Virus record (IMG/VR): IMGVR_UViG_2537562014_000001
Reading direction: 5' to 3' (one strand)
Source of the DNA: a virus
Lineage: Monodnaviria > Loebvirae > Hofneiviricota > Faserviricetes > Tubulavirales > Inoviridae
Length of the DNA: 8,395 nucleotides
The translations under genes were made by a program, and so were the position numbers. The number at the start of each line of letters is the position of its first letter. Position 1 is the stretch's first letter. Positions 825-2,081 of the stretch are shown here, in pieces. The notes under the pieces are model-generated. The model was not told the DNA's origin and did not search any database. It worked only from the letters and a program-made list of their open reading frames with translations.

Positions 825-2081
825 CTATGGTGTGGTGAGAGAAACGGACATCCCCCCGGCACCGCTGCCGGACGAACGCGACGGGGAAGGTTCACTGCCT
901 GACCCGCTGTGAAACGTGATGTGTTCGCCATCCAGTTCCAGTACAGTAAGCAGCCCTTCATACGGCAGTTCACTGCGCACAAGCCGCGTGACGTTGCTGT
1001 TACTGCGCAGAATAAAAACCCCCTGCCCGTTACCGTCACGCATATGACCGGAAAGCCGCCAGACACGGGAAAGCGGCAGTTCTGCCGGAGATGCGACCTG
1101 TGGTACAGGCGGCGCTTTTTCAGTGGTGATTACCTGTGGTGGTGCCTGCATGACCGTTGCAGCCGGCTCATCAGGTGTGCCGGAGAAAAAATCCAGCACA
1201 AGACGTCCCCAGAACCAGAAAAACAGGCCACCCACCACAACGGACAACAGTTTTTTACGGCGCGCCTGTTGCTGCTCCTTTCGTTCCTCTGCCGTGAAGG
1301 TCTGCAAATCCCCTTTCTCCTGCCGCTCACGCAGCCGCCGGAACTGCCGGAGGGTTCTGCCGGGCAACAGGGAATACATGGCGCGCATATCACAGACCCG
1401 CTGATGCTCACCCGTTCCGAGCAGTTCCATTCCGTCATCAAATACCATGTTCGTCGGATGGATACCGTAAAAGGACGGCGCATAAAAAACGCGGGATTCA
1501 TTGGGACGGGAATTCGCCCGGGGAACACCGATATAAATTTTTGCCGAAATCAGGTGCGGCAGAAGCCCTTTCCGGCTGCCCGTATCGCCAAACTTATCCG
1601 GCATGCAGAGTTCCAGAATATCGGACACGACCGGGACACGAATACGATCAAGACGACGGCAGCGGACAATCAGCTCACCCGTGGATTTAAATATTTTGCT
1701 GTCAACGGCGGATTCATCCTGCACCTGAATATAAACATCCCAGCCCAGTTTCCCGGACTGTACAAACCATTTGTAATATTCCAGGTATTCCCGGCCGGAA
1801 GATGTGCCGTTAAGCCATGTTCCGACCTCATCCAGAAATAACGCACCAAACCGCTCCTTCTCATTTTCATCACAACCACGCCCCAGCGCCCAGAAATCTT
1901 CAGGACGAGGACGGGCCGGAAGCACGGTCACCGGATGCGATGAAGCCGGGTCCATTTTTTCAGTATCAAGCGGGTAATTTGCCGCAATTCTGTGTCCGCG
2001 ACGGTAAAACTGTTTTGCCACCATGGAGCAGAACAGCCCCTTCCCGTTGCGCATTTTTCCTGTCACCCAGTAAACAGCCAT
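825..2081 (-). CDS. Filamentous phage assembly protein pI (Zot-like P-loop NTPase family), 418 aa
   Basis: N-terminus MAVYWVTGKMRNGKGLF matches Ff pI MAVYFVTGKLGSGKTLV. Internal block LFLDEVGTWLNG...KLGWDVYIQVQDESAVDSK...IVRCRRLDRIRVPVV matches Ff pI LLVLDECGTWFN...KLGWDIIFLVQDLSIVDKQ...VVYCRRLDRITLPFV (recalled). RBS-like GGGTG lies immediately upstream; synteny after gVI. Confidence 0.9.
   Translation of the reverse strand: MAVYWVTGKMRNGKGLFCSMVAKQFYRRGHRIAANYPLDTEKMDPASSHPVTVLPARPRPEDFWALGRGCDENEKERFGALFLDEVGTWLNGTSSGREYLEYYKWFVQSGKLGWDVYIQVQDESAVDSKIFKSTGELIVRCRRLDRIRVPVVSDILELCMPDKFGDTGSRKGLLPHLISAKIYIGVPRANSRPNESRVFYAPSFYGIHPTNMVFDDGMELLGTGEHQRVCDMRAMYSLLPGRTLRQFRRLRERQEKGDLQTFTAEERKEQQQARRKKLLSVVVGGLFFWFWGRLVLDFFSGTPDEPAATVMQAPPQVITTEKAPPVPQVASPAELPLSRVWRLSGHMRDGNGQGVFILRSNSNVTRLVRSELPYEGLLTVLELDGEHITFHSGSGSEPSPSRSSGSGAGGMSVSLTTP

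Follow-up and report, generated by a model that had tools for sequence, protein, structure and literature searches.

The Walker A motif GKMRNGKG, in which glycine occupies the position directly after the P-loop lysine (K+1) that is held by serine or threonine in canonical P-loops, is, judged by comparison with its homologs, the normal and ancestral form in a deep-branching clade of pI/Zot assembly proteins from inoviruses and not a lesion of the copy described here. This copy lies on a stretch of 8,395 nucleotides (hereafter the window), and the distribution and conservation of its sequence relatives indicate that the encoded pI is probably a functional, selected variant. Since no isolated phage of the GKG clade was found among 50,697 phage records, we infer the assembly activity of its pI from evolution only.

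All inovirus (filamentous phage) prophage genes recognized in the window by means of the ORF list and Pfam are located on the minus strand (Table 1). The pI gene, which is free of frameshifts and stop codons, sits in a morphogenesis module composed of a pIII-like gene, a pVI-like gene, pI itself and the remnant of a secretin gene. The order pIII-pVI-pI-secretin is also found in other loci (L002, L086, L088, L092, L094 and L179-L186), and each related prophage that was examined has an equivalent of the pVI-like ORF in this position.

Table 1 Features of the window and of the pI protein encoded on it (positions refer to the window; K+1, residue following the P-loop lysine)
Feature	Position	Strand	Basis or remark
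IS21-family element, right end; 3' part of istB, frame-disrupted	3..521	+	Pfam IstB_IS21
Secretin (pIV/GspD-like) gene, truncated after codon 98	465..815	-	Comparison with E24377A secretin
pI/Zot-type assembly protein gene, intact, 418 aa	825..2081	-	ORF list, Pfam Zot, PHROG 1675
Minor coat protein gene, pVI-like, immediately upstream of pI	2089..2448	-	Gene order; PHROG 27651
pIII-like adsorption protein gene	2451..3776	-	Pfam Phage_Coat_A, E 7e-8
Replication initiator Rep, GPA family	5032..6873	-	Pfam Phage_GPA, E 5.3e-48
Walker A/P-loop GKMRNGKG (G8..G15) of pI	2037..2060	-	Translation
Gly15 codon GGG, K+1 position (Ser/Thr in canonical P-loops)	2037..2039	-	Translation
Cys70 in LGRGC, clade-specific, co-varies with G15	1872..1874	-	Alignment
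Walker B ALFLDE (D84, E85)	1827..1844	-	Translation
Walker B block LDEVG	1821..1835	-	Translation
Gln121, equivalent of M13 g1p Q126	1719..1721	-	100% conserved in GKG clade
R143-L-D145, in RRLDR motif	1647..1655	-	Conserved in both clades; 96% in GKG clade
Predicted single transmembrane segment, residues 278-299	1185..1250	-	Hydrophobic stretch LLSVVVGGLFFWFWGRLVLDFF

Translation of window positions 2037-2081 on the minus strand gives MAVYWVTGKMRNGKG as the N-terminus of pI and thus confirms the GKMRNGKG motif with glycine after the P-loop lysine, which had been pointed out in an earlier sequence-only reading of this DNA. The Walker B-like block LDEVG, described there as intact, is present as well. 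The further statement that the N-terminus is almost identical to Ff pI applies to residues 1-9 (8 of 9 identical), but not to the N-terminal 219 residues, over which identity amounts to 33%. With respect to the motif itself, the G-x4-G-K spacing is kept, with G8, G13 and K14 being invariant, whereas the canonical GxxxxGK(S/T) pattern is broken at K+1, where Gly15 replaces Ser/Thr. As the K+2 residue is Leu or Ile, there is also no adjacent hydroxyl which could compensate for Gly15. A Walker B of the hhhhDE type (ALFLDE) and a conserved glutamine (Q121), corresponding to D88, E89 and Q126 of M13, are in place.

Assignment of the protein to the Zot family is based on matches to Pfam Zot PF05707 (38.8 bits compared to a cut-off of 20.3, residues 2-148) and to PHROG 1675, 'protein I of M13' (E 3e-36). 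A sequence search of the PDB gave no significant match (best E 0.11, to a CobU-like kinase). The AF2 model of pI (mean pLDDT 83.6, with the cytoplasmic ATPase domain mostly above 85) found its best PDB match by Foldseek in the N-domain of Zot from N. meningitidis (2r2a, E 3.6e-6), followed by RecA; hence, pI is regarded as a RecA-like ASCE P-loop protein. The predicted architecture comprises an N-terminal RecA-like P-loop domain, a single transmembrane helix and a periplasmic C-domain, and the predicted transmembrane segment falls within helix 262-299 of the AF2 model. A conserved methionine (Met232, in DMRA) was considered as a pXI-like internal start and was dropped, as no clear Shine-Dalgarno sequence is located upstream.

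The distribution of the glycine variant was followed in several sequence collections. A search of 5.8 billion proteins with the window pI resulted in 74 homologs. All 62 closest homologs with an intact N-terminus (P0001 to P0062) carry G-x4-G-K-G; GKG homologs range from 98% down to about 27-30% identity to the window pI and originate from E. coli, E. albertii, Edwardsiella, Salmonella, V. cholerae, V. mimicus, V. parahaemolyticus and V. fluvialis. GKT or GKS was encountered only in the most distant, Ff-like homologs of this search. When 1.84 billion cluster representatives were searched exhaustively with HMMER, 482 clusters were found at E ≤ 1e-3. Among the best 150 of these, the newly returned proteins display Thr (59), Ser (56), Gly (21) or Asn (3) at K+1, and another five GKG clusters had already come up in the search of 5.8 billion proteins. 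Overall, of the 50%-identity clusters closest to the window pI, roughly one in five lacks the K+1 hydroxyl, and GKN variants occur in three pI clusters. An Azospira genome and two viral contigs from metagenomes contain additional independent GKG cases, all reading GKK-x-x-GKGL; the Azospira case was the one new GKG case in a KLGWD-seeded scan of genome contigs, which otherwise yielded almost exclusively GKT/GKS relatives.

In a neighbor-joining tree of 206 N-terminal domains, the window pI falls within one monophyletic all-Gly clade (n = 74), and about six other small GKG/GKN lineages are scattered among the GKT/GKS proteins. Fitch parsimony on this tree gives seven changes at K+1. The tree is a simple neighbor-joining one and approximate, and its sample is biased toward relatives of the window pI. 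The qualitative picture of one deep GKG clade accompanied by recurrent small losses of the K+1 hydroxyl nevertheless appears robust on the basis of these comparisons. Isolated phages were addressed by tblastn of 50,697 phage records using the window pI, a Vibrio GKG protein and the 403-aa GKG protein of E. coli as queries, and no isolated phage of the GKG clade, and therewith no functional homolog carrying GKG, was found among these records. All matches displayed at most 41% identity, and every inspected one carries GKT or GKS (Ff, If1, IKe, PEar, fs2, VFJ, Vaf1, V. cyclitrophicus phages and Ralstonia RIP1). YpfPhi and CUS-1 had been considered as possible relatives; a published Zot tree places the Y. 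pestis Zot away from the M13 cluster.

Whether GKG is lineage-wide or private to this copy, a question raised by the sequence-only reading, is answered by the alignment of homologs: all 74 clade members carry GKG, and in none of them is Ser or Thr found at K+1. Residues G8, G13, K14, G15, N35, D84, E85, W114 and Q121 are 100% conserved in this clade, and R143 and D145 are conserved to 96%. The codon for Gly15 is GGG in the window, in E24377A and in one metagenomic phage, GGA in Edwardsiella, Salmonella and V. mimicus, and GGC in the 403-aa type of E. coli and in V. cholerae. Hence, the amino acid has been kept through synonymous turnover. The proposed check by dN/dS was carried out by the Nei-Gojobori method against the 70%-identical Edwardsiella ortholog, giving 0.094 over the entire gene and 0.055 over residues 1-230, which comprise the ATPase domain (pS 0.69, pN 0.097). 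Among E. coli alleles, this domain shows eight synonymous and three non-synonymous differences in total. The ATPase domain of GKG pI is thus, as far as can be read from these substitutions, under strong purifying selection. Such conservation implies a selected function; it does not imply that hydrolysis is this function. The minor GKG/GKN lineages likewise keep K14, D84, E85 and Q121. Compared to the GKT clade, the GKG clade has gained C70, K75 and H176 and has lost R131, H178, W197 and Q212. Cys70 is present in 89% of the GKG clade and invariant in alignment A2, while GKT/GKS proteins have a gap or Asn at this position. An unusual but functional P-loop variant of this lineage, one of the two options offered by the sequence-only reading, fits the clade-wide occurrence of GKG, its synonymous codons, the purifying selection and the invariant catalytic residues.

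Several of the prophages encoding GKG pI are complete. The exact 418-aa pI of the window was found in 118 blocks of the assembly collection, and an identical pI is encoded in complete genomes with two to three tandem prophage copies, each of which encodes Rep, coat proteins and a secretin of 406 aa. A copy at ≥93% identity is carried by 22 of 5,426 complete E. coli genomes, many of these being enterotoxigenic E. coli (ETEC), with a median of 2 and a maximum of 8 places per genome. Strain UTAK-18 contains tandem copies of the window's prophage type that are 99.5% identical over positions 522-7995 and have intact secretins. In E24377A, which was the only genome checked for its integration site, the secretin gene of the intact copy ends some 800 bp away from a dif site that has a single mismatch, and this proximity points to XerCD-type integration of the CTXphi kind. 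Complete gene sets also occur in Salmonella and Edwardsiella as well as on two independent 8.0-kb metagenomic contigs. The V. cholerae GKG members form three tandem copies adjoining rtxA, without a secretin of their own. In JNE25-005, a 9.6-kb circular extrachromosomal copy (pJNE25-005_3) resembles a replicative form; as its sequence is full of frameshifts, it lends weak support only. The 8.0-8.4 kb whole-phage contigs (L086, L092, L093) show no terminal overlap and are therefore no proof of a replicative form.

With regard to mechanism, precedents for the absence of a K+1 hydroxyl are available from other P-loop proteins. In a survey of 3,136 catalytic sites, Ser/Thr at K+1 was described as strictly conserved (10.1101/2022.06.23.497301). 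Exceptions with Gly are several NMP-kinase families, in which water serves as Mg2+ ligand #4 and for which loss of the hydroxyl has been proposed to suppress futile hydrolysis, while Asn is found in DnaC and torsinA, both of which hydrolyze ATP very slowly or act as switches (10.1101/2022.06.23.497301). Both types of replacement occur in the pI family. For M13 g1p, K14, D88 and E89 are essential (PMC5408679), Q126 has been reported to be essential too (bioRxiv 10.1101/2022.09.21.508815), and R148, the equivalent of R143, is listed as ATP contact in MD simulations. GKG pI, retaining the P-loop Lys, the Walker B Asp-Glu pair and the sensor Gln, would most likely still drive or gate filament assembly together with its secretin partner. 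It is hypothesized that a water molecule acts as fourth Mg2+ ligand in place of the K+1 hydroxyl, as in GKG P-loops of the adenylate kinase type. Binding of nucleotide-Mg would thereby be kept, and the protein would work as an NTPase or as an NTP switch in a pocket that has presumably been remodeled by the residues gained and lost in the GKG clade.

Several observations count against a functional GKG pI. A number of residues reported as ATP contacts in M13 g1p models differ in the GKG clade, and the regions of R131, H178, W197 and Q212, all lost there, are said to contact ATP in M13 g1p simulations. Moreover, known K+1 replacements are accompanied by no (NMP kinases) or very weak (DnaC, torsinA) hydrolysis. 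Finally, the P10 and Y13 deviations of CTXphi Zot abolish M13 assembly, and purified CTXphi Zot is without ATPase activity. No report of virion production or ATP hydrolysis by any member of the GKG clade was found in the literature. Provided that GKG pI is functional, the odds of efficient hydrolysis are considered roughly even. The invariant Glu85 and Gln121 favor retained catalysis, whereas the loss of R131, H178, W197 and Q212, the gain of C70, K75 and H176 and the ATPase-negative CTXphi Zot favor a changed pocket or a switch-like role.

The latter role is at the center of the alternative that survives best, although it is regarded as rather unlikely. Here, the GKG clade would bind nucleotide with hydrolysis being lost or nearly lost, so that pI acts as an ATP-dependent switch or scaffold comparable to DnaC or torsinA and the energy for extrusion comes chiefly from the proton-motive force or another component. 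Apart from the loss of the four GKT-clade residues and the low or absent hydrolysis seen with known K+1 replacements, this reading can draw on the model of Kozlova et al., which assigns a catalytic proton-relay role to the K+1 hydroxyl, on the presence of GKN, the DnaC/torsinA type, within the pI family, and on CTXphi, a productive phage even though its Zot has no detectable ATPase activity in vitro. Complete conservation of the catalytic Glu85 and the sensor Gln121 in 74 sequences would be less expected if only binding mattered. This argument, however, is a weak one, as DnaC also keeps the acidic residue at D+1.

Quite improbable is the explanation that GKG pI is defective and that the prophages are satellites using the canonical pI of a co-resident helper filamentous phage. 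According to a suggestion by Ma et al., complementation by co-infecting phages accounts for the accumulation of deviant Walker motifs in Vibrio, and the V. cholerae GKG members are indeed located beside other filamentous-phage modules. A gene complemented in trans should drift, though, whereas the ATPase domain of GKG pI is under strong purifying selection and has invariant catalytic residues. In addition, GKG occurs in both of the E. coli subclades between which Rep modules are exchanged, and the enterobacterial members possess a complete set of assembly genes with a secretin of their own.

The other option of the sequence-only reading, an assembly ATPase inactivated in a decaying prophage in line with its truncated secretin, is very improbable. 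The truncation as such is real, and the K+1 hydroxyl is normally required. The secretin ORF of the window is identical to the 406-aa secretin of E24377A for 98 codons, diverges at position 521/522 and runs into the end of the IS21-family element, for which two istB fragments gave IstB_IS21 Pfam matches (E 2.5e-19 and 4.4e-43). The istB remnant fills positions 3-455 and contains an in-frame stop at 159-161 as well as a local frame change, and all phage homology in other genomes starts at position 522. Since relatives with identical pI have intact secretins, the truncation is recent and private, and the loss of the secretin is due to an independent insertion of an IS21-family element unrelated to the P-loop. 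The supposed connection between both features is thus not upheld: GKG is found in every clade member, including intact tandem prophages with identical pI, and neither the absence of frameshifts and stops nor the dN/dS of 0.055-0.09 and the three synonymous Gly codons agree with inactivation. A sequencing or assembly error at the K+1 codon, finally, can practically be dismissed, as the same codon context recurs in dozens of independent assemblies and nothing speaks in its favor.

With a functional, selected GKG variant as the preferred reading, the clade represents a rare natural exception to the near-universal rule of Ser/Thr at P-loop K+1. No description of a GKG or GKN Walker A in pI/Zot was found in the literature, where the deviations described for the Zot Walker A are Y13 and P10 plus an unspecified 'atypical' class of V. 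cholerae that keeps the lysine. The element itself is known, as the GKG pI genes are already annotated as Zot-domain proteins and the elements are catalogued as predicted inoviruses in IMG/VR. Being common in prophages of E. coli, Salmonella and Vibrio, GKG pI offers a natural and tractable system for studying the role of the K+1 hydroxyl in an ASCE/RecA-fold motor, and M13 gene I amber complementation as well as ATPase assays already exist for pI. It could reveal whether ATP hydrolysis by pI is indispensable for the assembly of all filamentous phages. As a tentative generalization, it is possible that a deep RecA-fold clade and about six further pI lineages gave up Ser/Thr at K+1 and employ either efficient water-mediated hydrolysis or non-hydrolyzing ATP switches. 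In the first case, models with an indispensable catalytic K+1 hydroxyl would be contradicted; in the second, these filamentous phages would be extruded without an ATP-hydrolyzing pI motor. In practical terms, finding a non-canonical Walker A in a gene for Zot/pI is no evidence that the prophage is dead.

Among known systems, g1p/pI of the Ff phages (M13/fd/f1) belongs to the same Zot family according to HMM searches and shares the pIII-pVI-pI-pIV gene order and the predicted architecture, with K14, D88/E89 and Q126 of M13 having their equivalents in K14, D84/E85 and Q121 of the window pI. Differences lie in the limited identity to fd/M13/f1 over the N-terminal 219 residues (33%, as mentioned above), in K+1, which is Thr in Ff and Gly in the window pI, in the sequence LGRGC where Ff has GRGN, and in the GKT-clade residues R131, H178, W197 and Q212, which are not conserved in the clade of the window pI. 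As no T15 mutant was found in published M13 g1p work, the need for T15 in Ff is itself an assumption. Zot of CTXphi is likewise a pI/Zot homolog whose Walker A departs from the consensus, and it comes from a filamentous prophage that integrates at dif and forms tandem arrays. Its Walker A reads GxPxxYKT and its Walker B contains Phe, so that it deviates by P10, Y13, F86 and P126 (Q126P) while keeping Thr at K+1. None of these CTXphi-type degenerate residues is present in the window pI, which has M10, G13, a normal ALFLDE without Phe at the position of M13 V86, and Q121. Furthermore, changes of the CTX type have been shown to be deleterious in M13.

DnaC and torsinA resemble GKG pI as ASCE P-loop proteins that lack a K+1 hydroxyl and are biologically functional as slow ATPases or switches. 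In contrast to the RecA-like pI, they possess an AAA+ fold and carry Asn instead of Gly at K+1; Asn can form a hydrogen bond with the Walker B Asp, which is not possible for Gly. In adenylate kinase and other NMP kinases (GxxGxGKGT), as in GKG pI, the P-loop Lys is immediately followed by Gly; in these kinases, water takes the place of Mg2+ ligand #4, which is the solution proposed for GKG pI. They belong to another fold class, however, catalyze phosphotransfer, possess a LID domain and have no Walker B Asp-Glu pair for water activation, and their GKG is followed by Thr, whereas GKGL or GKGI is found in the pI clade. The window pI reads GKGL, its fold matches Zot and RecA and not the kinases, and the Walker B Asp-Glu pair is present. 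Hence, the resemblance to NMP kinases may, by analogy, indicate a possible way in which the site works rather than family membership.

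The replication module has been swapped between prophages that share an assembly protein. Both the window and its own prophage type, represented by UTAK-18, carry a 613-aa Rep of the GPA family, and the E24377A-type prophages, which have the same pI as the window, encode a 398-aa Rep_trans initiator. Moreover, the Rep region of the window (4456-6873) is found again with ~88-89% identity in prophages of the other E. coli subclade (403-aa pI) of the GKG clade, i.e. of the pI proteins with Gly after the P-loop Lys. Recombination evidently takes place among these phages. The pIII-like protein, with its long linkers, differs in length between copies (441 aa in the window vs 450-464 aa in tandem copies inside single genomes, L179-L186).

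Features of the window
Feature	Position	Strand	Remarks
IS21-family element end, with istB remnant	3..521	+	in-frame stop 159-161
Met232 of pI, in DMRA	1386..1388	-	conservation in GKG clade
pIII-like protein, 441 aa	2451..3776	-	Gly/Asn/Asp/Ser-rich linkers
GPA-family Rep, 613 aa	5032..6873	-	compared with loci L002 (5137..6333) and L105-L114
TolA-domain protein, 121 aa	7278..7643	+	Pfam PF06519, E 4.5e-12; PHROG 5772

In V. cholerae (GCA_019092965.1; L089/L090), a GKG-type filamentous prophage is present three times in tandem, directly adjoining rtxA (MARTX). These prophages encode a G2P-like Rep and a pV-like ssDNA-binding protein but no secretin. The tandem copies have as a neighbour another module of inovirus-like type, with Rep_trans, DUF1293 and DUF3693.

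An extrachromosomal copy of the window's phage is the circular 9613-bp 'plasmid' of E. coli JNE25-005 (NZ_AP045060.1; L001), which also contains an ISEc31 insertion. Because its genes are full of frameshifts, with pI spread over all three frames, this record suggests a consensus of poor quality rather than real decay. Two short contigs encoding an Ff-like or enterobacterial-type pI, from the unrelated assemblies of SAR11 cluster bacterium PRT-SC02 (L028, 4.1 kb) and Actinomadura monticuli (L015, 8.4 kb), are probably M13/phagemid or cross-sample contamination; the pI N-terminus of the former reads MAVYFVTGKLGSGKTLVSVGKIQDKIVAGCKIATNLDLRL, which is that of M13.

The junction between IS and secretin is common to the window and one IMG/VR contig (L102, IMGVR_UViG_2534681656_000001), which matches window 447-4378 at 99.4%. 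Damage to this copy of the IS is suggested by its istB remnant, which has not only the in-frame stop but also a short out-of-frame stretch (TTLQRGV in frame 2 vs KRRFSVE plus stop in frame 3). The element's own Walker A motif, GVGKT, is canonical.

The TolA-domain gene is also annotated in the UTAK-18 prophage. Its product starts with a signal-peptide-like N-terminus (MKKKMKIALMLIGVTLSANA) and carries the C-terminal domain of TolA. Towards incoming filamentous phages, a secreted copy of TolA domain III could serve as a decoy for their pIII N1 domain, leading to superinfection exclusion.

Within pI, D231-M232-R233 is almost invariant across the GKG clade and lies ~45 residues ahead of the transmembrane helix. 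No obvious Shine-Dalgarno sequence was found upstream of the Met232 codon in the window. Met232 could be a candidate internal pXI-like start, in likeness to the internal start of Ff gene XI.
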